Positions 1,811 through 44,677 of a DNA stretch of 64,000 bases are shown piece by piece. Position 1 is the stretch's first letter. Every line of letters starts with the position of its first letter. Origin of the DNA: an uncultured virus (IMG/VR IMGVR_UViG_3300011334_000503) (taxonomy: Duplodnaviria > Heunggongvirae > Uroviricota > Caudoviricetes); the IMG/VR virus record IMGVR_UViG_3300011334_000503; one strand, written 5' to 3'. Both the position numbers and the translations under genes were made by a program. The notes below the pieces were generated by a model that worked only from the letters and a program-made list of their open reading frames with translations, ran no database searches and was not told where the DNA came from.

Positions 1811-1825
1811 AACTTTTGTTTTTAG

Positions 1826-1897
1826 TAGCGAGGGCAGGAATCGAACCTGCGACCTACGGGTTATGAGCCCGCCGAGCTACCTCTGCTCTACCTCGCA
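1826..1897 (-). tRNA. tRNA-Met(CAT), initiator (fMet) type; CCA not encoded
   Basis: TGCGAGGTAGAGCAGAGGTAGCTCGGCGGGCTCATAACCCGTAGGTCGCAGGTTCGATTCCTGCCCTCGCTA: CAT anticodon, three consecutive G-C pairs in the anticodon stem, 1:72 mismatch, GTTCGA T-loop. Confidence 0.93.
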
Positions 1898-1904
1898 ATT
1901 TTTG

Positions 1905-2329
1905 TGGACCTGTAGAGATTCGAACTCTAGTCTCCGACAGTGACAATAACACCAACGTTTCACATGCTTAGTACTGATTTGTTCGCTTTATGCATGATAC
2001 ATAAACTGGTACGATAAATCTGCGCCGTAGGGGCTGACCTGTCATGGTAGGTCAATTTCCACCACCTTGTTTTGAGAAAACTAGGAAAACGACCCACAGT
2101 CCTTATTTAACGAGTCGATCGTGAATACTCGGAGTAGTTCTGTTCCTAGGTTACTCACCCGTTTGCGGACTAGGCTGCTAGAGCGTAATCGGCGCCTACG
2201 AAGGCCATAAGGTCGTCGTAAGTCATTGTTGACATTTCGTCAGTTATTGTTTGCAGTTTTCTAAGGCGACTCTACCAAACGCCTGCATGTGGTGCAATCT
2301 CAACAACCGGATCAATTCCAGTCAGGCCC
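1905..2329 (-). ncRNA. ssrA: tmRNA (about 425 nt); tag ORF 2241..2170 encodes (A)DEMSTMTYDDLMAFVGADYALAA*
   Basis: 5' GGGCCTG pairs with 3' CAGGTCC-A, including the G3:U70 alanine identity pair. T-arm TAGAG-TTCGAAT-CTCTA. ATAACT precedes the resume codon and the tag ends YALAA. Confidence 0.93.
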
Positions 2330-3265: not shown

Positions 3266-3901
3266 TCAACCTATTTTTGGAAAGAGAATTTCGCTCATAA
3301 AGTATCTTGCTCGATCTTCTCCTAATTTAGCTTTTAGTACATTATAAGTTCTTTGGTTTTTTTGTTGCTCTTCGCAATAGTAGTTTTGTCTATTTTTAAT
3401 TTCAAGTTTATCGTATTCTAAATTTACTCTTTCGATCAAACAAAGATCAATATACTTTTTGTATGCATCTACTACTATTTCGCTTAAAGTTTCAAGATCT
3501 TGATCATTTGGAACTATAGCAATGGCAGACTTAGAAAATATGTTATTTGCCCAGTCTGGAAGTTTATACAAAGAATCAAAAGATCTTGAAGATTGGTAGA
3601 CAATATTAGATACTGTAGGAGAATAGTCTAGAAACGCAGCTAAAGGTTTTTTATCTGTGGTAATCACATCGAATCCGAATATCGGATTTTGGCTGGTTTC
3701 GTTAGGAAAGGTAGTGATATGCAGAACTTCTAAATTTTTATCTGAATATCTTTCTATGTGAGCGATTCTAAAGTGTTTGGATACGTAACGATGATTGATC
3801 CACCCAAAATCTTCGGTTTCTATTTCTAGACCTTCTCCACTATTTGTGATTACTTCCTTAACTGTCTCTGCTATTTTATCCAGCGTAACTTTGTAACTCA
3901 T
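3266..3901 (-). CDS. pcyA: ferredoxin-dependent bilin reductase, PcyA/PcyX-like
   Basis: FRIAHIE, LEVLHITTFP, PIFGFDVI, AAFLDYSP, LPDWANNIFS, QNYYCEEQQKN, FMSEILFP match FDBR motifs; adjacent to a heme oxygenase. Confidence 0.8.
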   Translation of the reverse strand: MSYKVTLDKIAETVKEVITNSGEGLEIETEDFGWINHRYVSKHFRIAHIERYSDKNLEVLHITTFPNETSQNPIFGFDVITTDKKPLAAFLDYSPTVSNIVYQSSRSFDSLYKLPDWANNIFSKSAIAIVPNDQDLETLSEIVVDAYKKYIDLCLIERVNLEYDKLEIKNRQNYYCEEQQKNQRTYNVLKAKLGEDRARYFMSEILFPKIG

Positions 3902-4385
3902 CGTAAATTTTTATAACGTAATCTAATCCTATATTAGCTTCATCAGCCCAAGAATCTTGTTGTATAGCTCTAATACTAGATATAGCGGTTTGTTTATCTT
4001 CAAATTCATACATATTACCTGATCCTGGAACTTTAGATTTCATCATTTGTCCTCCATATAATAGGGCCAAGTAATTAAGATATACATGTGGTAACATTGA
4101 ATTATCATCTAGACCGTTTATATATTTTATATATTCTTTAGTAGAGTCTAGAGTGCTGAATATGAATCCACCAAGTTCGATTATATCTTTTTTTACGCTG
4201 TGAGATCTTGTCAAAGAATCGCTAGGTAGTTTTCTGCTCTCTATCTCTTTAAATATGTAGTATTGTTGAATTAAGTAATGAAGGTACTCGTCTTTACCTA
4301 GTTCGCCCTTATACATTCTTTGATTAAACTCTTTACTTTCTGCTATAGCGTGTTTTTCAGAGATCGCTTCTTTTAGTGGAATCAT
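3876..4385 (-). CDS. heme oxygenase
   Basis: LKEAISEKHAIAE (proximal His), YLHYLIQQYYIFKEIE, HVYLNYLALLYGGQM distal helix. Confidence 0.85.
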   Translation of the reverse strand: MIPLKEAISEKHAIAESKEFNQRMYKGELGKDEYLHYLIQQYYIFKEIESRKLPSDSLTRSHSVKKDIIELGGFIFSTLDSTKEYIKYINGLDDNSMLPHVYLNYLALLYGGQMMKSKVPGSGNMYEFEDKQTAISSIRAIQQDSWADEANIGLDYVIKIYDELQSYAG

Positions 4386-6875: not shown

Positions 6876-7760
6876 TTAATTGACATATTTGCTGATATCT
6901 CGGTGGTCACCCCATGGTCGATCAGAGTCTAGATCTTCTGTTTTTATGTTTGGCTTTGGCATGTTTGCCGCCACGTTCCAAAACCAATCTCCAGGTTTAC
7001 CGTGTTCTTTAAGCAATTCCCAACCTTTTGCGTCGTATGTTCTGATGCAATCAAACGGTGGTACGATCTTTGCTTCTTTTAAGAATGGTTTCGAGTGAGT
7101 GTAAAACTTTGCTCGACCAAGTTCTCCGTCTTGAATATTTCTTGCTACAGCTACCGCATGAAACTCTGTATTCGGTAGAGCAATTTGTAAAGATCTTGAT
7201 AAAACTCCAGTAGACATAACAGACCACATTGTTTTTATGTCTGTATCTTTAAAGTTATCGTAAAACACTCGAACTCCTCCAGCTACCACCATCTCGTGTT
7301 TAAGACCAAAAGGCAAAAATTTAGCTCCTATCTTTTCTGCGAACTGTTTTGCCCAAATGTTTGCGGTTGGCATTGCAGGTATTCTTAAAAAGATTGGAAT
7401 TCCTCCGTATTCTATAGCTGTCCTCTGGTGCTCAGAGGCTTCTTTGGACGCAGGCATAATTAGGTAAAGTTTCTTATTATACTTCTTTGCAAGATAGCAC
7501 AGTGAGAACGGGGCATATCCTGTACGCGGCGCTACATATACCATTGCATCTTCTTTTATTTGTGAGATAAAGAAGTCTGCCATTTTAGATTTGGTACCGT
7601 AAAGAAACTCACCGTCGTCTATTACTTTGAATCCCTCGATGTCTTTTATGGTAAAGGTAAAATCGTGTTTGTAGTCTTTGGTAAGATCTAAGTAGTACTC
7701 TAACGATCTTCCGTTTGCAAGATCTAGGTTAGAATCTCCTTTTGTTTTGTTTATGTACAT
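6876..7760 (-). CDS. PLP-dependent enzyme, fold type II (ACC deaminase/cysteine synthase-like)
   Basis: GTK Schiff-base Lys, GYAPFSLCYLAKKYNKK, VMSTGVLSRSL phosphate loop, YDAKGW. Confidence 0.75.
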   Translation of the reverse strand: MYINKTKGDSNLDLANGRSLEYYLDLTKDYKHDFTFTIKDIEGFKVIDDGEFLYGTKSKMADFFISQIKEDAMVYVAPRTGYAPFSLCYLAKKYNKKLYLIMPASKEASEHQRTAIEYGGIPIFLRIPAMPTANIWAKQFAEKIGAKFLPFGLKHEMVVAGGVRVFYDNFKDTDIKTMWSVMSTGVLSRSLQIALPNTEFHAVAVARNIQDGELGRAKFYTHSKPFLKEAKIVPPFDCIRTYDAKGWELLKEHGKPGDWFWNVAANMPKPNIKTEDLDSDRPWGDHRDISKYVN

Positions 7761-7761
7761 T

Positions 7762-8697
7762 TTATAGTATTTCGTTTAGGAAAGGATAGTATTTCGGGCG
7801 TAAGTGAACTGACTGCTTCATTTCTAGTATATCGAGCATCTTTGTTCCGTCTTGATCGACCCACTCGTCTGGCCACTGAATCGTTTTGAGTCCTGAATTG
7901 TTTATAATTCTATTTGCTGTATCTCTAAGGCGTTGACGTTCTTCTCTAGTTCCAAAGAATGGTTGCTTTTTATACAATCCTGTGCCAGGAATCTTTCTTG
8001 ATTCGTGTTCTACTGGAAGCAAGTTTACTAGAGTTACGTTGTTAAGTTGTTTTGCAAATTCTATGTACCTTCTAAATAGATCTCCTGTTGCAGCAGCAGG
8101 ATTTTCTTGTCTCATTAGATGGAAACGTGCGTCTATATTCCCAAAATAAAGAACTACTTCGTCAAATACTTCGTTCATTAATTCGGGAGTGTTACGCTTT
8201 AAGAATCCGTGTAGAGTTCTTCCTGCTGTGAAGTCCAAAGAATATCCAGGTCTCCATACTGATAGAGCGTGAGAGTCTCCGATCACTCCCTTTCTGGTTT
8301 CTAGACCGTGAGCCAAGAACGTGTTGTACCAAGGCACTGTGTTAACGTTCGGATAAGTTACGCCTTCGATCTTTAGTCTCTGATTGAACTTGTTGAAGTC
8401 GAAAAAGTGGTTGGAATACCTTAGCTCGCCTTTGTATTCGGCGATCGCTTTCATCTTTTCGTAGTGTAATTGACTTGGTCCACCTGGTATATTGAATGAT
8501 CCTGGTACGAAATTAACGCTTTCACAAATGTATAGTATATCGTAATCTTTCCAAGTAGATACTTTCGGATTCACGTCTACTACATCTCCAGAATGATTAT
8601 CTTTTAGCATTCTAGTCTGTATTAATCCGTACCCCGATCCTTGCGTGTTTAGAGTTGTACCTACATTACCTAGCATGCTGATTAATCCTATTTTCAT
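7762..8697 (-). CDS. two-domain protein with C-terminal SGNH/GDSL-like hydrolase or acyltransferase domain
   Basis: VIGDSHA (block I), YFGNID (block III), SVHL (block V). Confidence 0.55.
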   Translation of the reverse strand: MKIGLISMLGNVGTTLNTQGSGYGLIQTRMLKDNHSGDVVDVNPKVSTWKDYDILYICESVNFVPGSFNIPGGPSQLHYEKMKAIAEYKGELRYSNHFFDFNKFNQRLKIEGVTYPNVNTVPWYNTFLAHGLETRKGVIGDSHALSVWRPGYSLDFTAGRTLHGFLKRNTPELMNEVFDEVVLYFGNIDARFHLMRQENPAAATGDLFRRYIEFAKQLNNVTLVNLLPVEHESRKIPGTGLYKKQPFFGTREERQRLRDTANRIINNSGLKTIQWPDEWVDQDGTKMLDILEMKQSVHLRPKYYPFLNEIL

Positions 8698-8701
8698 AAC
8701 T

Positions 8702-9352
8702 TTAAATTTTGTAATACGATAATTTACCTGTTTTTATTCTGTATATAATAGCTGCTGAGGTTATTCCGTAGTGCTCTCCCGCATGCTTTAATGAATCAAA
8801 TATAATACTATTTTCTATATCTATAACTTTTTTTCTCTTGGTGCTGGGTTTTCCAAATTGAGAATTATCTTTTCCGTATCTACTTCTACCCATTTTTAAT
8901 TTTGATTCTTCAGAGTGTTTAAAATTAGCTAATTTGGCTTTAATTCTATCTATAACTTCTTTACTATGTTTTTTATTGTAAAATGGGTTATTTTCTCCAG
9001 TGTTTAGTTGAGCCATTTTTTTTCTTGCGTATTCGACCACTCTAGAATTAGGAACATAATTCTTTGCGCTAGTTGATTTAATGTGGCACATTTTGCTAAA
9101 CGCGTATGCCAACTTATGATTTTTAGGATATATTTCGTGCAACAACCAATGACATAAAAAATGCTCTCTAGCTGTTAATATAGCTATATTAGGATGATAG
9201 TACTGATCACTTTTTCCTAGTCCTCCCATACTTTCTGGTACTATGTGGTGACCTTCGTAGTACGCTTCTCCTAATTTTTTTCTTTTTACTCTATAATCGA
9301 CTTCTGCTTTAGACCTTTGGCAAATTTGATCATATATTTTTTGATAATTCAT
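8702..9352 (-). CDS. HNH endonuclease with NUMOD3-type DNA-binding repeats
   Basis: EGHHIVPESMGG...NIAILTAREHFLCHWLL; GENNPFYNKKHSKE, KHSEESKLKM; C-terminal IFDSLKHAGEHYG helix-turn-helix. Start re-called to ATG at 9352. Confidence 0.88.
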   Translation of the reverse strand: MNYQKIYDQICQRSKAEVDYRVKRKKLGEAYYEGHHIVPESMGGLGKSDQYYHPNIAILTAREHFLCHWLLHEIYPKNHKLAYAFSKMCHIKSTSAKNYVPNSRVVEYARKKMAQLNTGENNPFYNKKHSKEVIDRIKAKLANFKHSEESKLKMGRSRYGKDNSQFGKPSTKRKKVIDIENSIIFDSLKHAGEHYGITSAAIIYRIKTGKLSYYKI

Positions 9353-9362
9353 AAAATAAAAA

Positions 9363-9454
9363 TGGTCCAAAAAATAAAGGAGCTACTACCTTCCTAAATT
9401 TAATGGACCAATAAGTTTTATTATAGACAGTTGGTAGTAGCAACTTTCTATCTA
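9363..9454 (-). ncRNA. candidate structured RNA (two hairpins with complementary loops) in the HNH leader
   Basis: Pairings (+ strand coordinates): 9363-9369/9404-9410, 9378-9381/9392-9395, 9424-9433/9441-9454, plus 9-bp loop-loop complementarity 9382-9390/9433-9441. Confidence 0.6.
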
Positions 9455-9467
9455 CAATAAATATTCT

Positions 9468-9491
9468 AAAAAAGCCCTCGTAATTGAGGGC
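9468..9491 (-). terminator. intrinsic terminator
   Basis: GCCCTC-AATTAC-GAGGGC followed by T6. Confidence 0.8.
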
Positions 9492-9498
9492 CTTTAAG

Positions 9499-9771
9499 TT
9501 ATTTTTTATTAGAAAGAATGTCTTTGCAAGCATCTGCTATACGGTGGTGATTTGTATCAATAGCATATTGATATAGACCTCTTATTTCAAATTCGTCGGA
9601 TATATCGTGATCATTAAGTACTTCTTTGGTCCAATCGTATTCTTGAGACTTATCTCCATTTGCTTTTCCTACTATTTCGTCTACTAAATCTGCGAACATC
9701 TGTTGATCGTCTTCCTTTAACAAACCTGCTATCTTCTGTAGCTTTTGTACTTCGTTTAGTTGTTTTTTCAT
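9499..9771 (-). CDS. small acidic protein with MKKQLNEVQKLQKIAGL leader (possible internal head protein)
   Basis: First 17 aa identical to the neighbouring ORF. Confidence 0.7.
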   Translation of the reverse strand: MKKQLNEVQKLQKIAGLLKEDDQQMFADLVDEIVGKANGDKSQEYDWTKEVLNDHDISDEFEIRGLYQYAIDTNHHRIADACKDILSNKK

Positions 9772-10020
9772 TTTATTATATTACGCCTTTACTTATTTTT
9801 TACATATTTTGTATCCTAATCTATCAAGCTTTTCAATCAGCTCTTTTGGAATTTCTCTATCCATTCCTCCATTATTCATTCTGATACCCAATGGTATTCT
9901 TTCCCACACTTTTATTAGTATCAGAAATTGCTCCTTTAAACTGAGTTCAGTATCATTTTTTTCTTTCTTTAGGCCGGCTATCTTCTGTAGCTTTTGTACT
10001 TCGTTAAGTTGCTTTTTCAT
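9728..10020. repeat. 44-bp direct repeat (9728-9771 and 9977-10020, 42/44 identical)
   Basis: gctatcttctgtagcttttgtacttcgtt(t/a)agttg(t/c)tttttcat occurs twice. Confidence 0.9.
9793..10020 (-). CDS. small protein with MKKQLNEVQKLQKIAGL leader
   Basis: Start re-called to ATG at 10020 by identity with its paralog. Confidence 0.65.
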   Translation of the reverse strand: MKKQLNEVQKLQKIAGLKKEKNDTELSLKEQFLILIKVWERIPLGIRMNNGGMDREIPKELIEKLDRLGYKICKK

Positions 10021-10035
10021 ACCAATAAATATCAT

Positions 10036-10058
10036 AAAAAAGCCCTCCGAAGAGGGCT
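10036..10058 (-). terminator. intrinsic terminator after groEL
   Basis: AGCCCTC-TTCG-GAGGGCT followed by a T-run; C(UUCG)G tetraloop. Confidence 0.9.
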
Positions 10059-10064
10059 CTTTGT

Positions 10065-11690
10065 TTACATCATTCCTGTCATTGGATCGGGTGACTTTTC
10101 GTCTTTATCTTTCTTTTCAAAGATAACTGATTCTGTGGTAAGAATAGTTCCTGCGACCGATGCTGCGTTTTTAACTGCGGTGATCACAACCTTTGCTGGA
10201 TCGATGATACCAGCTTCGAATGCATTGACCATTTTATGATTCTTTGCATCATAGATTTTACCTTCTACTAATTCGCTAGGAGTAAATTCCCACCAATTCT
10301 CAATTCCAGCGTTGGCCAAAATCTTGATAAACGGAGCTTGTAAAGCGGTCCTAACGATGTCCCTTGCTATAGACGCGTTAGTGTTGTGTTCTGAACGGTG
10401 TTCTAGGGAAAGTCTGTACAGAGCTGTTCCACCACCAGGAACGATACCATCGGCTAGCGCTGCTTTGGTTGCGAATAGAGCGTCTTCAACACGATCTTTC
10501 TTTTCTTTAATTTCGATGTCTGAGTTACCTCCTACGTTGATGATAGCTACTCCGCCTACGATCTTACCAAGCCTTTCTTGAAGCTTTTCTTTCTCGTAGA
10601 AAGAAGTCGCGTTGTCAATCTGGTCTTTGATTTCTACTGCTCTTGCTTCGATTGCTTCTTCTGATCCTTTGCCGTCTACAATAGTAGTTTCGTCTTTGGA
10701 AACTGTGGCGATTCTAGCTGATCCAAGGAATTGATCCAACTGTTGAGTAGTGATCTTGTCCAGTTTGTGTCCCTTGTCTTTAGAGATAACTTGACCTCCT
10801 GTGAGAATCGCGATGTCTTCCAAGATCAAGGTCTTTCTTTCTCCGAAGTCTGGCGCTTTTACCGCGCACACTTGAACGATTCCTCTCATCTTGTTAACGA
10901 TCAAAGTTGCCAATGCTTCGTCTCCGATGTCTTCTGAAATGATCAACAATGGACGATTCTCAGAGTTTGCTTTGGTAAGTACTTGCAACAACTCTTGAGC
11001 TGTAGAGATGCGACCGTCGTAAAGAAGAACGTAAGGATTGTCAAGACCTGCTTGCATTGTGGTATTGTTAGTTACGAAGTATGGAGATTTGTATCCCCTA
11101 TCGAACTGCATACCTTCAACGATTTCAAGGCTTGTTTCTCCTGTTTTGGATTCTTCGATAGTTACTACTCCTTCACGACCTACAGCATCAATAGCAGAAG
11201 CAATTAGGTTACCAACTTCTTCATCATTGTTTCCTGAGATAGTTGCTACTTGTTTGATTTGATCTTCAGTAGAAACATCGATAGCTACTTTTTTAATCTC
11301 TTCAACCATTTCGTTAACAATCTTATCGATTTCTTTTTTAATAGCTACTGCATTTGATCCTTGCCTGATTTCTTTCAATCCTGCTTTGATCATCTCTGTT
11401 GCGATAAGGGTAGAAGTGGTTGTACCGTCTCCAGCTTCGTTAGCGGACTTGATAGATACTTGTTTGACCAATTGGGCTCCAAGATCTTCGATATCATCTT
11501 CTAGTTTGTGGAAAGCCTTCGCCACGCTTACTCCATCTTTGGTGACTTTAACTTCTCCGCTTTGTTCCCTAATCAACACAGTACGACCACCTGGTCCTAG
11601 GGTTGATGATACTGAAGCGTTAAGCTTTTCTACTCCTGAGAGGAGTTTTTCTTTTAGTTCTTGTCCGAACACATTTTTAGTTACACTCAT
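10065..11690 (-). CDS. groEL: chaperonin GroEL
   Basis: [47 protein letters not shown]. Confidence 0.97.
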
Positions 11691-39033: not shown

Positions 39034-39373
39034 TGTCTATTATACCTTTTCTTATTTTTGTTCCACTGATATTTGAGATATCGCTTGGAGGCTCATGATA
39101 GATTACGTCATATCCAACTCCACGACCATAATTAACTGAATCTATGTCAGGAATTATCGAAACAAGCAATCTATCTTTATTTTCTATAAAGAAGTTTTCT
39201 TTTTTCAGATTTTCTAATATAGTCTGAGCGTTGTTAGGATTGTTTTCGTCTATTTCTACGTCTCTGATAGCGACCCAGACTAACTTTCCTTTCTGTAACT
39301 GTTGGTTGATTAACCACTCGTGGCCTTTGTGCCAATTTTGCCATCTTCCGATAAATAACGAATATTTTTTCAT
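39002..39373 (-). CDS. HxGH nucleotidyltransferase (cytidylyltransferase-like; candidate minimal ATP sulfurylase)
   Basis: FIGRWQNWHKGH and C-terminal ISGTKIR; overlaps the APS kinase gene. Confidence 0.7.
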   Translation of the reverse strand: MKKYSLFIGRWQNWHKGHEWLINQQLQKGKLVWVAIRDVEIDENNPNNAQTILENLKKENFFIENKDRLLVSIIPDIDSVNYGRGVGYDVIYHEPPSDISNISGTKIRKGIIDNEGNNKETLG

Positions 39374-39780
39374 ATACTTTTTATTTTATTTACGCATTCT
39401 TCTATTGACAATTTACTAGTATTCAAATGTAATACATTTTCTTTACTTGGGTAATCAAAATCTTCTACGTGGAAAGATTCTCTGCCTCTTTTTTCATCGT
39501 AAGTGAGATATATCCACTTAACTTCGTTACACATACTATTCAAGTACTCTCTAGATTCTTTGTACGGATATACCAAAGAAAGAATAACGTTGTATCCTAG
39601 AGAGTCTAGGTATATCGCTATATCGCTCGCTCTATTTAAGTTTTTTATTCTGCCTTCTCGACTGTAATCTTTGTTTGAAAACAACTGTCTCAAATTGTCT
39701 CCATCAATATTATGACCTTTTAACTGTTTTGCGATAGTACTTTTCCCTGAATGGGGCTGTCCAAACAATACGGTTACCAT
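39370..39780 (-). CDS. cysC: adenylylsulfate (APS) kinase-like protein
   Basis: GQPHSGKST P-loop, DGDNLR, DYSREGRIKNL, LVYPY. Confidence 0.8.
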   Translation of the reverse strand: MVTVLFGQPHSGKSTIAKQLKGHNIDGDNLRQLFSNKDYSREGRIKNLNRASDIAIYLDSLGYNVILSLVYPYKESREYLNSMCNEVKWIYLTYDEKRGRESFHVEDFDYPSKENVLHLNTSKLSIEECVNKIKSI

Positions 39781-39783
39781 ATC

Positions 39784-40605
39784 TTATTTTTTGTATTTAA
39801 AAGTTTCAAAATACCATCTAAAATTTTCGTATATCCAGTGACAAGTGTATTCTCCAAGAATATCTTTTGAATCATCAGGTAACGCTGATATTTTATTACG
39901 AATTGTATGATCTCCGTATATTCCATGTACAGTATCGTCTTCTACTGTTACTTGCTCTATGTGATTGTAATTGTGTTCGTACTGAGGAAGTCCAAAATAA
40001 TCATATACGCTTGTTATGACTGCTTTAGGATTTTCGCATAGATCTTCGTATCTTAAAAAAAGAAAATTGTTTGCTGTCTTGTCTAAAATAGACTGGTTTA
40101 ATTTTAAAAGCGCGTATCCAATTGGGTGAGACATTCCCCATATTTCAACTCTTTGTTGCGTAGTGATTCCAGTTAAGTCTTTGTTGTTTACTAGTCCGTC
40201 GTCTTTATCAGGATTGGCTCTAAACTTTTTCTCCATTGACGCAAAAATAGCCGGTAAATCTCTTACTAGTACTAATATTTTGGGATTTGGATTAATGTTA
40301 TTCAATAGAGAGTATTGAGCTCCCCAAGCTCTACTTTTGTCTAGTATGTATGGTTTGTCTGTTATAGCGCTAACGTATCCTTTTAAACCTTCTCTGCAAA
40401 AAGAGTACATACCTTTTTTCCACAATTCAGCGTCTCCGGCTTTAGCTTCTTGACTTCCATTATATCCTATTTTTGTGCCTAATACTAAGTCTACCATACC
40501 AGAAGTTGGAGTGACATAAAAATTAGGATTTTGTCCGATTATGTTTTGTAGTAACGTACTTCCTGCTCTAGGCATAGAAGATTGGTAAAATATGGTTTGT
40601 TCCAT
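39784..40605 (-). CDS. sulfotransferase
   Basis: MPRAGSTLL 5'-PSB loop, LVRDLPAIFAS 3'-PB motif, LRYEDLCENP. Confidence 0.88.
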   Translation of the reverse strand: MEQTIFYQSSMPRAGSTLLQNIIGQNPNFYVTPTSGMVDLVLGTKIGYNGSQEAKAGDAELWKKGMYSFCREGLKGYVSAITDKPYILDKSRAWGAQYSLLNNINPNPKILVLVRDLPAIFASMEKKFRANPDKDDGLVNNKDLTGITTQQRVEIWGMSHPIGYALLKLNQSILDKTANNFLFLRYEDLCENPKAVITSVYDYFGLPQYEHNYNHIEQVTVEDDTVHGIYGDHTIRNKISALPDDSKDILGEYTCHWIYENFRWYFETFKYKK

Positions 40606-41555: not shown

Positions 41556-42238
41556 TATATTATTTTTTTGAATAGTAACTCTGTTAAATTGTAAGTATCT
41601 CCTATTTTTTCTTTTGGCATTACGTTAAAAGCTATGCTTTTTCTTGGCATTTTGCTTTTATTTACAGGGACCGAATGAAACACGTGAGACGGAAATATTA
41701 ATAACAACCCTGGTGAATAGTTAACCGAAAAGACGTCCCAAGCGTACTCTGATTTTCTTCTATCGTTTTGATACTTTGGAGAAAGATAAGAGACATTAGT
41801 AGCAAATACGGGTTTGTGAAAAGATATTGCTGGCATATCTGGATCGTCTTCTCCGTAATAAAATACGCCTGATATTAAACTGTTTGGATGCGTATGCATC
41901 GTATGATGTTGTCCAGGATCTTTAATGGATATCCAAGATTGAGATAACGAATATTCTTCATAATCGTATAACATTATGTTTTTTCCAAAAAAATTAACGC
42001 TGTCTATTATAAAATTTTTTAAAGGTTCACACTCTTTAGCTTCTAGTATATATGTGTCTTTAGAATGATATCCATAATCTTGACTCATAGTTCCCATCAT
42101 TTCAGAGCGATCTAAAAAATCTATAGTTTTAGCTAGATCATTTTTAGTATATGTTGCAGTAAATAATGGACTCGGAAATAAAGGCAATACCTCTATTGTT
42201 TTTTGATCTAACATAACTTTTTTATTTATATCTTCCAA
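41555..42238 (-). CDS. 2OG-Fe(II) oxygenase-like protein (TIGR02466 type)
   Basis: LFPSP, HTHPNSLISGVFY, IFPSHVFHSV, RKSIAFN. Confidence 0.85.
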   Translation of the reverse strand: MEDINKKVMLDQKTIEVLPLFPSPLFTATYTKNDLAKTIDFLDRSEMMGTMSQDYGYHSKDTYILEAKECEPLKNFIIDSVNFFGKNIMLYDYEEYSLSQSWISIKDPGQHHTMHTHPNSLISGVFYYGEDDPDMPAISFHKPVFATNVSYLSPKYQNDRRKSEYAWDVFSVNYSPGLLLIFPSHVFHSVPVNKSKMPRKSIAFNVMPKEKIGDTYNLTELLFKKII

Positions 42239-42863
42239 AAATAATTTCGCTTATCGTTTCTTTGTCTCCTAAAGTTCCTTTTGTAAGAGCATTGACGCCT
42301 AAAGCTTTTCTAACTCTGTTAGTAGTATTTGGTGGAACTCCGTGAGTGAGGTATGATGGAAATATTATAAGATTACCTTGGTTTGGTTTAAAATAAATCT
42401 CTTCTTGAGAGTGTGGATAATTCTGAAAATCTGGTAATAAGGAAGGCTCTATATAAGATCTATTGTAAGATCTTGCTTCTTTGCTAAAGCAAATAGCTGC
42501 ATCATCTTCTTGTACGTCGTAGTAAAAAACTCCAGCTATTATAGTATTAGGATGCGTATGAGCTCTATGAAATTGACCAGGTTTTTTATAAGTTAACCAA
42601 GATTGTGCAAATTGAAGCTCTTTATATTCATATCTCATAACATCAGTAGCAAACTTTCTAAAGTGATCCATGATCCAATCTGATAGTGGTTTACATACTT
42701 CATTATCTATTACGTAACTATTTTTAGATATGGTTCCATAACCTCCATTAGGTTCGTTCATTTCTTGACTATCGAAATATTTTACTATATCTGTTAAGTT
42801 TTTATCGTACGTAGTCACATACAAAGGAGTAGGAAACAAATCAAATACTTTAGACTCTGTCAT
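42222..42863 (-). CDS. 2OG-Fe(II) oxygenase-like protein (TIGR02466 type)
   Basis: LFPTP, HTHPNTIIAGVFY, IFPSYLTHGV, RKALGVN. Confidence 0.85.
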   Translation of the reverse strand: MTESKVFDLFPTPLYVTTYDKNLTDIVKYFDSQEMNEPNGGYGTISKNSYVIDNEVCKPLSDWIMDHFRKFATDVMRYEYKELQFAQSWLTYKKPGQFHRAHTHPNTIIAGVFYYDVQEDDAAICFSKEARSYNRSYIEPSLLPDFQNYPHSQEEIYFKPNQGNLIIFPSYLTHGVPPNTTNRVRKALGVNALTKGTLGDKETISEIIFGRYK

Positions 42864-42864
42864 A

Positions 42865-43455
42865 TTAATCTTTTGCAGGTACTAGATTAAACGCTATAGA
42901 TATACGTTCTTTTTCGCTCTCGTTTCTTTCTACGTAGTGTTTTATCCAACTAGGAAAAAGATATAGAGTAGAAGTAACAGCTTTTTTTACGCAAACCGGA
43001 GAGTTTGCCATAGTGACCTCTTCCACTTTTCCGTTTAAAAAATAATCTGCGTTATCTGGTCTGACCAAAACTAGATCTCCCATGTTTTGTTCTGGAACGT
43101 CTACGTAATATACTCCTGAAAGGATACTTTTTTGATGATCATGCAACAAATTATAGTCGTGCTTTCCGTTAATGTTTATCCAAAAATTGCCGAATTTTAA
43201 TTCTATTCCAAGGTATCTAAAACAAACATCGTTTGAAAACACTGTTATATCGTTAATTAACTTATCTAAATCTTCAGGCGCAGGAGATAATAATTCATTA
43301 CTGTGCCAACCTCCTCTGTTTGATATTGTTGTACCAGGGAGTTTTTCTCTTGTTTGAAGACAGTAATCTTTTATCGATTCGTTATCTATTCCCGTAACTG
43401 GAACCTCCCATATAGGGGTAGGAAACCATAATTGTTCGTAAACTTTAAATTCCAT
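42865..43455 (-). CDS. 2OG-Fe(II) oxygenase-like protein (TIGR02466 type)
   Basis: WFPTP, SNRGGWHS, HDHQKSILSGVYY, FPSWIKHYV, RISIAFN. Confidence 0.85.
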   Translation of the reverse strand: MEFKVYEQLWFPTPIWEVPVTGIDNESIKDYCLQTREKLPGTTISNRGGWHSNELLSPAPEDLDKLINDITVFSNDVCFRYLGIELKFGNFWININGKHDYNLLHDHQKSILSGVYYVDVPEQNMGDLVLVRPDNADYFLNGKVEEVTMANSPVCVKKAVTSTLYLFPSWIKHYVERNESEKERISIAFNLVPAKD

Positions 43456-43471
43456 TATTTTATTTTTTCTA

Positions 43472-44092
43472 TTATTTAAAAGGTCTTCCGCCTGTCCAAA
43501 ATACTAAACACTTTCTTTGGCCTCTAGTTATCGGTGTTACTCGATGCATCAAGAATGATGGAAATATGATAACATCACCTTTTTCTCTAGGCACTGTAAT
43601 GAATTTATCTTTTGATCCCAACCAAATTTCAAAATCTCCTCCATCGTATTCCGAAGGATCAGAGAGCTGCACTGTCATAGCTAATTTTCTCTTATTTACT
43701 GCATAAGCTCCTACGTCCATGTGCCAATCTAGATGTCCCCCATCTTCAGGATATATAACATAATGAATAGGATCAGTAACGATGTCTATGTCGAATTTAA
43801 AAAGTTGTTCGTTTGCTTCTAAAGAAAGCGGAAATAACAACTCGTATAGCCACTTAGAGTGTAGATCGGGTTCTATATACGCGATGTCTCTATTATTTGT
43901 TTTTTTTGAATTTGTTACTGTTCCAAGTTCAGCTATTCCTGTAGTACCTTTTTCAAATTTATAATTATTATGTACCATATTTTCCAGATTAGAAATCATT
44001 TCGTCTGTAAATACGTTTTTAAAATAATAAAAGTTATTCCAATTACTTGTTGGAGTATCGTTATTGTAAGGCTTTAGGGAAATCATAACCAA
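43472..44092 (-). CDS. 2OG-Fe(II) oxygenase (PKHD/prolyl hydroxylase-like)
   Basis: DWHMD, RKLAMTVQLSDPSEYDGG, FPSFLMHRVTPITRGQR. Confidence 0.9.
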   Translation of the reverse strand: MVMISLKPYNNDTPTSNWNNFYYFKNVFTDEMISNLENMVHNNYKFEKGTTGIAELGTVTNSKKTNNRDIAYIEPDLHSKWLYELLFPLSLEANEQLFKFDIDIVTDPIHYVIYPEDGGHLDWHMDVGAYAVNKRKLAMTVQLSDPSEYDGGDFEIWLGSKDKFITVPREKGDVIIFPSFLMHRVTPITRGQRKCLVFWTGGRPFK

Positions 44093-44095
44093 ATT

Positions 44096-44677
44096 TTATT
44101 TGTAGTGCGTATACCAACCGGTAAGAATGTATTTATTTTCTGTGTTACTTGGAATGCCTCTGTGTAGGTGAGTCCAATCAGAAGGCCAAATTATAAGCTT
44201 TCCTTTTTCTGCTTTCTCTTTATGACCTTGATAGTAGAATTGAGTTTCTCCACCATCGTTAACCGTATTTAGGTAGATCATCCAAGCTAGCACTCGATTA
44301 GAATTAGTCAATCCTGCTCTTTCGCAATGCCATCCGTAAAATCCCTCTCCAGGTTGGTACCTTTGCATGTTAAAAGAAGTGTCTAGTCTGATGCTATCTA
44401 GTTTAGTCATAGCGTCTTCAAACTTTAGAGTATACTTCGCTACGTGATTTTCTATAACTTCGACTAGGTATTCTAAATGCTTGCTCCAAACTGGATTATT
44501 TAGATAAGTGGGATCGAAAGAAATATCAGTGGATTTTTTTATATCCTGCATTTCTACCAATTCTTCGTTAAATCTAAATTGACCTTTTCTTTTTAAAGGA
44601 GAATTTTCGAATAACTGTATAATTTCATCACAAAAAACCGTATCTAATGCTAGAGGACTAGAATAGATAAATTGCAT
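44096..44677 (-). CDS. 2OG-Fe(II) oxygenase (prolyl 4-hydroxylase-like)
   Basis: MQRY, WHCE, WMIYLN...GGET.F, WPSDWTHLHRG, KYILTGW. Confidence 0.9.
   Translation of the reverse strand: MQFIYSSPLALDTVFCDEIIQLFENSPLKRKGQFRFNEELVEMQDIKKSTDISFDPTYLNNPVWSKHLEYLVEVIENHVAKYTLKFEDAMTKLDSIRLDTSFNMQRYQPGEGFYGWHCERAGLTNSNRVLAWMIYLNTVNDGGETQFYYQGHKEKAEKGKLIIWPSDWTHLHRGIPSNTENKYILTGWYTHYK

Follow-up and report, generated by a model that had tools for sequence, protein, structure and literature searches.

We describe here a structured RNA leader that precedes the gene for a free-standing homing endonuclease in an uncultured tailed phage (IMG/VR record IMGVR_UViG_3300011334_000503), of which a stretch of 64,000 nucleotides (nt), hereafter the window, was analysed. 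Sequence comparison identifies the leader (window 9353-9464, minus strand) as an uncatalogued conserved cis-acting RNA that stands ahead of free-standing homing endonuclease genes (HEGs) in a group of freshwater phages, probably phages of Bacteroidota. Its two hairpins carry loops that pair with each other in a kiss, which is maintained by matched changes. We regard it as about an even bet (a probability of roughly 0.5) that the leader serves as a portable late promoter combined with an attenuator of the homing endonuclease, tuned by the kiss.

The leader is composed, from its 5′ end, of a box, hairpin 1, an A-rich linker, the long hairpin 2 and a U-run, and is followed by the ATG of the HNH-NUMOD3 gene (9352-9350); all of these elements lie on the minus strand. 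The box, ATATTTAT (9457..9464), is a probable late-type promoter element, the 3′ half of which is at the same time the 5′ strand of the bottom of hairpin 1 (9417..9461). This hairpin has a lower stem of 12-14 pairs, formed here by UUUAUUGUAGAUAG and UGUCUAUAAUAAA, a conserved purine bulge of 3-4 nt (AAA in this copy), and an upper stem of 4 pairs (GUUG/CAAC) closed by the 7-nt loop CUACUAC (loop 1, 9434..9440). The linker (9411..9416) falls in nearly invariant columns of both alignments described below and, when counted from the short form of hairpin 1, is the nearly invariant stretch AAUAAACUUAU. Hairpin 2 (9363..9410) is long and imperfect, with a GC-rich base of 6-7 pairs, two internal loops and an upper stem. 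Its stems are UGGUCCA/UGGACCA, AAAU/AUUU and AGGA/UCCU plus a closing G-C pair, and its 7-nt loop, GUAGUAG (loop 2, 9383..9389), is the 3′ partner with which loop 1 pairs. The U-run, UUUUUAUUUU (9353..9362), is located directly after hairpin 2 and directly before the ATG. The fold energy of the leader was -32.7 kcal/mol, as compared with -19.2 +/- 3.2 kcal/mol in 200 shuffles (z = -4.2), none of which was as stable. Hairpin 2 contributes a fold of -18.8 kcal/mol, and hairpin 1 one of -13.2 kcal/mol with the box-derived strand and of -6.0 kcal/mol without it.

A preliminary description of this DNA had placed two hairpins with complementary loops between the box and the HNH ATG. These hairpins are real, since both the shuffles and the covariation in the family put them far above chance. 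The leader between box and ATG likewise exists, at a length of 104 nt instead of the approximately 95 nt that had been claimed. The kiss had been put at up to 9 bp, and 9 bp can indeed be formed in this copy, but the two outer pairs are those that close the stems, and the relatives keep only the 7 loop pairs.

To collect relatives, the leader was compared by blastn with 162 IMG/VR loci fetched by means of the HNH protein and the neighbouring protein of 311 amino acids (aa). The same ~110 nt were found in a dozen of these loci, at other intergenic sites and ahead of other genes. Eleven leaders were aligned with MAFFT without reference to structure (alignment A1), and this alignment was the source of a covariance model, R1. 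A gapped DNA pattern fixing only part of hairpin 1 and the linker was run on IMG/VR and gave 76 stretches, of which 55 matched R1 at E < 1e-12 and 21 showed no match at E up to 1e-4. A total of 64 matches, including seven from six earlier loci, were reduced to 39 distinct leaders and fitted to the structure of the model (alignment A2). The sample is thus one sequence-defined subfamily collected by a pattern, and the E-values, which come from a home-built model, are rough. The 39 distinct versions, all from IMG/VR phage contigs, are ~115 nt long with 25-36% G+C and have their parts in a fixed order, and the model search found one copy in the window.

Searches beyond this sample yielded little. 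With an earlier pattern, a 15-mer from the linker, 2 of 118 loci (L163-L280) fitted the model among the matches listed, and the rest were mostly chance hits. Three loci from the nearest record (G001), a 32-kb fragment covering neither the leader nor the HNH gene, gave no model match. In bacterial and archaeal genomes, none of 80 loci found with the gapped pattern fitted the model among the matches listed, which does not imply absence from cells, and the comparison of the leader with 50,697 phage records returned a single 21-nt chance match. A cmscan of window 8000-11000 against Rfam 15, on both strands and at E up to 10, produced 12 weak matches, all of them well short of the gathering score of their family. 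Of those that overlap the leader, the highest-scoring was RT-14 on the opposite strand, with 24.4 bits as compared with a gathering score of 48.1. A literature search, made as a search-level check, found no published description of such a leader.

The covariation that the preliminary description had proposed to look for in the upstream regions of relatives, compensation between the loops included, proved to be strong in both alignments. In A1, 100% of the cells of the kiss are paired and six of its seven pairs have changed on both sides. The corresponding values in A2, with 39 leaders, are 99.6% and again six of seven, each with two-sided changes in 10-20 rows. For the whole structure, 92.5% of the cells are paired in A1 and 93.5% in A2, as compared with 82.1% and 78.4% in shuffles, and in neither case did any of 500 shuffles reach the observed value. 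When the partner columns were slid by 1-3, pairing amounted to 32-51% in A1 and 32-38% in A2. Two-sided changes affect 22 of the 33 pairs in A2. They are found in three of the four pairs of the hairpin 1 upper stem (100% paired), in two pairs of its lower stem (93% paired) and in all six pairs of the hairpin 2 outer stem (96% paired), and the upper-stem pairs of hairpin 2 covary as well. G-U and U-G pairs outnumber A-C and C-A pairs by 39 to 5, indicating that the fold belongs to the RNA of the sense strand. The pair counts of A2 are somewhat inflated, because its rows are related and were fitted to the model structure. The unfitted A1 gives the same picture, and this result, together with the slid controls, indicates that kinship and model fitting do not explain the covariation.

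Eleven different loop pairs were found, each of which is an exact complement: CUACUAC/GUAGUAG, CUACGAC/GUCGUAG, CUCUAAC/GUUAGAG, GCGGAAU/AUUCCGC, GGGCAAU/AUUGCCC, CUGCGAA/UUCGCAG, GUGCGAU/AUCGCAC, CCGGAAU/AUUCCGG, CUGCAU/AUGCAG, CCGUAAU/AUUACGG and CUGCGAC/GUCGCAG. The energies of these duplexes range from -6.2 to -10.5 kcal/mol. The loop code was not found to track either the nuclease family or the insertion site. The rate of change is about threefold higher in the loops than in the remainder of the leader (two of seven loop letters differ at 91% identity elsewhere), yet an identical loop persists between leaders that are just 58-70% alike, so that there is no clear sign of diversifying selection. 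Private loop codes might keep the 2-3 copies of a genome from cross-kissing, an idea that is statistically unsupported. The copies differ in their loops on all nine multi-copy contigs, which represent only ~3 independent combinations, and chance gives ~0.5.

Without exception, the 39 distinct leaders run up to the ATG that opens an HEG-like open reading frame (ORF), even though the gapped pattern fixed only a part of hairpin 1 and the linker. Thirty-six of the ORFs were sent to Pfam; those left out were a remnant of 40 aa, an ORF of 81 aa and an ORF truncated by the contig end. Matches to NUMOD3, HNH_3, GIY-YIG, LEM-3 GIY-YIG, HNH/HNH_5, NUMOD1 or I-HmuI NUMOD-like domains were obtained for 31, and the remaining five have HNH-like or GIY-like N-termini as judged by eye only. 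The gene in the window (8702..9352, minus strand) encodes 216 aa that match phrog_655 (E = 2.5e-37), NUMOD3 (E = 1.3e-13) and, in Pfam, the I-TevI DNA-binding domain (E = 1e-4), which the C-terminus also resembles in structure entry PDB 1i3j (E = 4e-5). Pfam gave no direct HNH-domain match for this protein; the HNH label is based on phrog_12434 (HNH endonuclease, E = 2.7e-7) and on an HH...N...H pattern recognised by eye. By these profiles and by its patchy presence, the gene behind the leader is a free-standing homing endonuclease of the HNH-NUMOD3 type, in agreement with the HNH-NUMOD3 assignment of the preliminary description. The same loop code, CUACUAC, heads genes of the HNH-NUMOD3, GIY-YIG, HNH_3 and short HNH types, and a single nuclease family also occurs with different loop codes. 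Judged by this distribution, the leader belongs to the phage group and its expression system and not to one enzyme family. Two leaders are intact although the nuclease ORFs behind them are truncated, to 40 aa at L344:2710-2827 and to 81 aa at L123:543-662, suggesting that the leader outlives the decay of the gene.

In at least 12 related loci, in which the HNH gene is absent, GroEL and the 311-aa gene are ~25 nt apart, counted from the GroEL stop codon. The corresponding distance in the window is ~1.35 kb, which holds two small paralogous ORFs and the cassette of leader and HNH gene. The HEG is patchy between otherwise collinear relatives. In locus L122, the stop codon of the 311-aa gene is where box and leader set in; in the window, the 311-aa gene abuts the next one, suggesting that the box arrives together with the cassette. 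In many loci, the next phage gene starts usually 0-40 nt past the stop codon of the nuclease gene and has no box of its own. In the window, this gene is the conserved 311-aa phage gene (7762..8697, minus strand), with its ATG 4 nt past the HEG stop codon, and as no box lies between the two, transcripts of the 311-aa gene must cross the leader. A conserved element was looked for at the 3′ end of the cassette, and none was found. Metagenome contigs over window 7600-10300 were obtained from four runs, all DNA metagenomes. Run X14 has three contigs covering the leader, one of which continues into the HNH gene while at least one other turns to unlike sequence at the ATG, and in one metagenome contig, as in L122, the leader adjoins the end of the 311-aa gene. 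These contigs fit a leader that is shared between genes. As the comparison of loci shows, the leader accompanies nuclease genes of unrelated families and has reached different intergenic sites with them.

The box at the 5′ edge of the leader recurs through the window. There are 18 copies of ATATTTAT as compared with 9.2 +/- 3.0 expected, and 17 of them are on the gene strand (minus-strand sites include 10025, 34223, 35285, 35871, 38211, 50123 and 62965). For 13 of the 17, an ORF of 40 aa or more is located within 80 nt, with the ATG 3-23 nt away in 12 and 51 nt away in one, so that the statement that other leaders behind this box are short holds. The genes preceded by the box at 3-23 nt include those for tail sheath, tail tube, baseplate hub and tail fibre. 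At 10025, the box is just 4 nt from the ATG, and a message started there would be leaderless or nearly so. Nearly all of the 39 leader versions carry the box at their 5′ edge, and its position and strand bias make it a probable late-type promoter element of the phage. Its 3′ half and the bases that follow pair with ...AUAAUAAA to form the bottom of hairpin 1. Across the family, the 3′ half pairs with the AUAAA after hairpin 1 in >90% of cells, neither side varies, and two natural variants of the box (L117 and L161) are uncompensated on the partner side; the alignment thus offers weak evidence for selection on the pairing between box and hairpin 1.

If the leader is a portable late promoter with a kiss-tuned attenuator, the cassette would bring its own late transcription from the box. 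Together, hairpin 2 and the U-run would act as an intrinsic terminator, ending part of the transcripts immediately upstream of the ATG. Transcripts that escape would extend through the nuclease gene into the one that follows, so that the terminator would dose both genes. The terminated share would be set by the pairing of loop 1 with loop 2 at the tip of the terminator hairpin; this kiss might either raise or lower termination. The setting would likely be constitutive, or dependent on the form of transcript that is made; a small-molecule pocket in the loops is unlikely because the loop letters vary freely. The bulge of hairpin 1 and the internal loops of hairpin 2 appear to be placed where hinges would be needed if the kiss coexists with the full hairpin. 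The earlier suggestion of a cis-regulatory pseudoknot that limits a toxic nuclease fits the data, as the covarying fold lies between the promoter-like box and the HEG start and ends in a terminator-like hairpin with a U-run.

The terminator function is suggested by three features taken together, namely the covarying GC-rich base of hairpin 2, the adjoining U-run, and a start region unlike that of other genes. The base is made up mostly of G-C pairs in an element that is otherwise poor in them, and the U-run follows directly. The spacer between stem and ATG measures 9-11 nt in 37 of 39 leaders and is 88% U (339 of 384 letters), and the U-run stays beside the stem while its distance to the ATG ranges over 6-13 nt. 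In the window, the 10 nt before the starts of 48 large ORFs contain 51% A and 31% T, and seven or more T are found only at the HNH gene. Termination can only be partial, given that the 311-aa gene depends on read-through.

Several observations weigh against this interpretation. Hairpin 2 is long, with two internal loops, unlike the compact canonical terminators of the same phage, and it was not flagged by a simple terminator scan, which admits loops of 3-8 nt and so cannot detect it. A strong terminator would starve the 311-aa gene and, at many other sites, the next gene, which lie without a box 0-40 nt past the HEG. The tight spacing of 9-11 nt would not be needed by a pure terminator and hints at a link to translation. 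Covariation extends to each hairpin and to the kiss. All of them may therefore exist simultaneously, and competition of the kiss with the terminator is not required. The inflation of the A2 pair counts mentioned above also belongs here.

Within the same framework, it is conceivable, if rather doubtful, that the leader is a switch responding to the point at which its transcript started. UUUAU, the 3′ half of the box, is nearly repeated in the U-run (UUUAUU), and either could pair with the A-rich linker (AAUAAA). Read-through transcripts hold the box, which would zip onto the linker and lengthen hairpin 1 (-13.2 as compared with -6.0 kcal/mol), shortening the linker from ~14 nt to ~6 nt, whereas transcripts started at the box would be without this strand and keep a long free linker. 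By analogy with the guanidine-IV riboswitch, the length of the linker would decide whether the kiss and the full terminator stem can coexist. The two forms of transcript would then terminate differently, and the nuclease would be made only from its own late promoter, or only by read-through.

Among the alternatives to the attenuator, the one that survives best is control of translation, which we consider possible on balance, though on the unlikely side. The kissing fold, with its end 9-11 nt upstream of the AUG, would reduce ribosome loading on the nuclease message or determine its timing. The tight distance between hairpin 2 and the AUG speaks for it, as does the start region, in which the U-run replaces the A-rich unstructured start typical of the 47 other large ORFs of the window. 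Inhibitory leader hairpins of endonuclease genes in the T-even phages (I-TevI, I-TevII, I-TevIII, segB and Aeh1 mobE) are precedents, and among the relatives of the HNH gene, L036, L039 and L040 have very stable hairpins reaching or covering the ATG. Against it, the conserved helices contain neither the AUG nor anything like a Shine-Dalgarno word, and there would be no explanation for the GC-rich base of hairpin 2 next to the U-run or for the need for a kiss. Translation control and termination could also act together.

A role in RNA stability or processing, in which the leader would be a 5′ fold shielding the message from 5′-end-dependent decay, an RNase III-type site or a self-cleaving ribozyme that separates the nuclease message from upstream RNA, appears improbable. 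A transcription start immediately behind the box would indeed make hairpin 1 the first element of the message at its 5′ end, and the messages of T4 segB and segG and of Aeh1 mobE are processed by RNase E (PMC2988022). However, no ribozyme family was matched in Rfam, and this role would again not explain the U-run and the GC-rich stem base. Slightly less probable still is a free-standing small RNA of ~100 nt, transcribed from the box as far as the U-run, that acts in trans, with the nuclease gene merely lying behind it. The succession of promoter-like box, structured RNA, hairpin and U-run is the layout of a small-RNA gene, but an HEG-like ORF is always found 6-13 nt past the hairpin (39 of 39 leaders), no single-stranded seed is conserved, and the letters that vary freely are paired in cis. 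The decayed 40-aa HNH remnant that retains its leader (L344:2710-2827) is neutral in this respect.

The preliminary description had also offered the leader as an RNA cofactor of a mobile HNH element, i.e., a cofactor, scaffold or guide comparable to the omega RNA or HEARO of IscB, a proposal that the data do not bear out and that we now hold to be very unlikely. The RNA does always adjoin a nuclease gene, and its variable 7-nt loops superficially resemble a programmable code. On the other hand, the same leader, even with the same loop pair, occurs with HNH-NUMOD3, HNH_3, GIY-YIG and short HNH proteins, and it is mostly missing beside relatives of the window protein. Among 78 loci with such relatives, a strong leader match was found at only two (L005 and L006) and a weak one at three (L008, L010 and L011); one further locus, L007, is cut at its 5′ end. 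This sharing across unrelated families, and the scarcity among the HNH relatives, speak against a function as guide or cofactor. All of the variable letters are taken up by the loop-loop pairing in cis, which leaves none for a target, no Rfam family was matched, HEARO included, and the enzymes bring their own DNA-binding modules (NUMOD3 and the I-TevI-type domain). Finally, a functionless chance fold, as arises readily in AT-rich intergenic DNA, has a negligible probability and is refuted by the covariation in A1 and A2, with 39 distinct versions, two-sided changes in 22 of 33 pairs and slid controls at only ~35% paired in addition to the shuffle z of -4.2.

Diverged leaders of the same design were detected near some of the HNH relatives. 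A broader model, R2, applied to 76 loci of this kind, gave weak matches only, at E = 0.02 for L010/L011, E = 0.66 for L008 and E = 0.18 for L060. Complementary loops could be recognised by eye in L010/L011 and L008; L060 has none and is not beside the nuclease gene. The leaders at L011:2887-3003 (= L010:1918-2034) and L008:2896-3003 are located ahead of HNH genes that are 37-41% identical to that of the window. With different letters, they follow the same plan, comprising a TATTTAT-type box, a 5′ hairpin, a hairpin with U-run and the HNH ATG, and their loops are exact complements (CUGGUCC/GGACCAG in L010/L011 and CGGCAA/UUGCCG in L008). The recurrence of this plan in diverged letters is a point in favour of the attenuator. 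In L011, the box is paired inside a small hairpin of its own. Simpler leaders are found in the 130 nt before the ATG of other HNH relatives, as a single hairpin with a TATTTAT-type word and a U-run in L013 and as the very stable hairpins mentioned above in L036, L039 and L040.

The closest architectural parallel is the guanidine-IV riboswitch (mepA motif), in which a 5′ hairpin and a linker are followed by a second hairpin that grows into a U-tailed intrinsic terminator (PMC11611296). The loop-loop kiss there is in competition with the finishing of the terminator stem, the length of the linker has an effect, and the stem, as it elongates, shortens the linker and hinders the kiss (PMC11611296). 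The leader is similar in that its kiss joins the loop of a 5′ hairpin to that of a terminator-like hairpin (99.6% paired, with a U-run following). It differs in its variable loops, which exist in 11 versions, in its full Watson-Crick helix of 7 pairs, in having neither a conserved ligand pocket nor an Rfam match, and in the genes controlled, which are phage homing endonucleases (39 of 39) and not guanidine exporters. In the leader, moreover, both full hairpins covary, and the kiss may coexist with the terminator.

Terminators at the start of HEGs are known from phage T4. An intrinsic terminator in the 5′ part of mobE stops 30-50% of the transcripts (PMC2790892), and an intrinsic terminator is also present in segF (PMC2988022). 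Like these, the leader places a hairpin and a poly(U) stretch at the start of a free-standing HEG, with partial read-through that is here predicted. The terminators of mobE and segF are simple hairpins inside the coding region of promoter-less cassettes. In contrast, the hairpin of the leader is found in a 5′ leader behind a promoter-like box of its own, is long and imperfect, kisses an upstream hairpin with its loop, and is part of one conserved module common to unrelated HEG families.

A third group of precedents is provided by the T-even leaders of I-TevI, I-TevII, I-TevIII, segB, Aeh1 mobE and gene e, in which a late or middle promoter is embedded in a hairpin (PMC3014915; PMC2988022). The leader resembles them in that its probable late-type promoter box can form part of the 5′ strand of a hairpin, so that box-started and read-through transcripts would fold differently. 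The T-even hairpins bury the Shine-Dalgarno sequence or the AUG and thereby restrain the nuclease gene (PMC3014915; PMC2988022). In the present leader, by contrast, the AUG follows the last conserved helix at a distance of 6-13 nt, and there is no conserved Shine-Dalgarno word. Its box-bearing hairpin serves as a kissing partner and not as an occluding element. As compared with the HEARO or omega RNA of IscB, which is likewise a structured RNA beside an HNH-type nuclease gene, the leader shows no model match, no tie to one protein family and no free guide segment. In the ColE1 RNA I/RNA II system and in the attenuation systems of pT181 and pIP501, complementary 7-nt loops make the first contact, and matched mutations change the specificity code. 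There, the kiss is formed in trans between two transcripts, whereas both loops of the leader are on one transcript. That a homing endonuclease can be restrained through leader RNA structure or a 5′ terminator is already known for T-even phages. The novelty lies in one portable, conserved module, complete with a covarying kiss, that unrelated nuclease families have in common.

The window itself derives from a large tailed phage, with genes for tail sheath, tube, baseplate and fibre, GroEL/GroES, a family A DNA polymerase, ribonucleotide reductase and a transfer-messenger RNA (tmRNA), and all genes around the leader are on the minus strand. In the collection of isolate phages (50,697 records), only the GroEL gene of the 3-kb region gave relatives, and its DNA is closest to that of Flavobacterium and Bacteroides phages, at 66-69% identity. 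The gene starts of the window are A-rich and lack a Shine-Dalgarno sequence, and together with the GroEL relationship this suggests that the host is probably a member of Bacteroidota.

Upstream of the leader lies a 90-aa ORF (9771-9499, minus strand), which ends in a canonical intrinsic terminator (GGCCCUC...GAGGGCC and U6, ~9492-9468, minus strand) just 5′ of the box and outside the leader family. The order of terminator and then box is seen again at 10062-10025, that is, twice in all in the window. The 90-aa ORF forms a tandem with a paralogous ORF of 75 aa (together 9499-10020, minus strand); both start with MKKQLNEVQKLQKIAGL, neither has a family match, and both are missing from the gap between GroEL and the 311-aa gene in many relatives. 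Within the 3′ part of the HNH gene (8790-8830, minus strand), ~130 nt before the 311-aa gene, there is a word, TATATTTG, which is kept in L146; a similar word lies ahead of the 311-aa gene in L090. It fits TAnnTTTG, the -7 promoter consensus of Bacteroidota, and could, on this resemblance, be an internal promoter that rescues the downstream 311-aa gene.

Elsewhere in the window, a tmRNA gene (1825-2329, minus strand), whose tag ends in ...ADYALAA, adjoins a tRNA-Met gene, and ARAGORN found no tRNA-like element at the position of the leader. Auxiliary metabolic genes that are unusual for a Bacteroidota-type phage are located at 3269-4385, 39373-40605 and 41558-44677 (all minus strand) and comprise a heme oxygenase with a ferredoxin-dependent bilin reductase, an APS kinase with a sulfotransferase, and five tandem 2OG-Fe(II) oxygenase paralogues.

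Homing endonucleases need a mode of expression that is harmless to the phage that carries them, for which the known solutions of T-even phages consist of ad hoc hairpins, of borrowed promoters and of a weak terminator. The leader is a single compact RNA module that unrelated nuclease families share at many genome sites; its covariation is of textbook quality, and its 7-pair kiss has been rewritten at least 11 times. The leader would be a new RNA family for Rfam and a natural, ligand-free relative of the guanidine-IV design, which would make it a model for the interplay of kiss and terminator during transcription. Its different loop codes on the same scaffold are possible orthogonal parts for tuning expression in Bacteroidota, where tools based on the Shine-Dalgarno sequence fail. 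In uncultured phages, the leader would serve as a marker for free-standing endonuclease cassettes and for late promoters.

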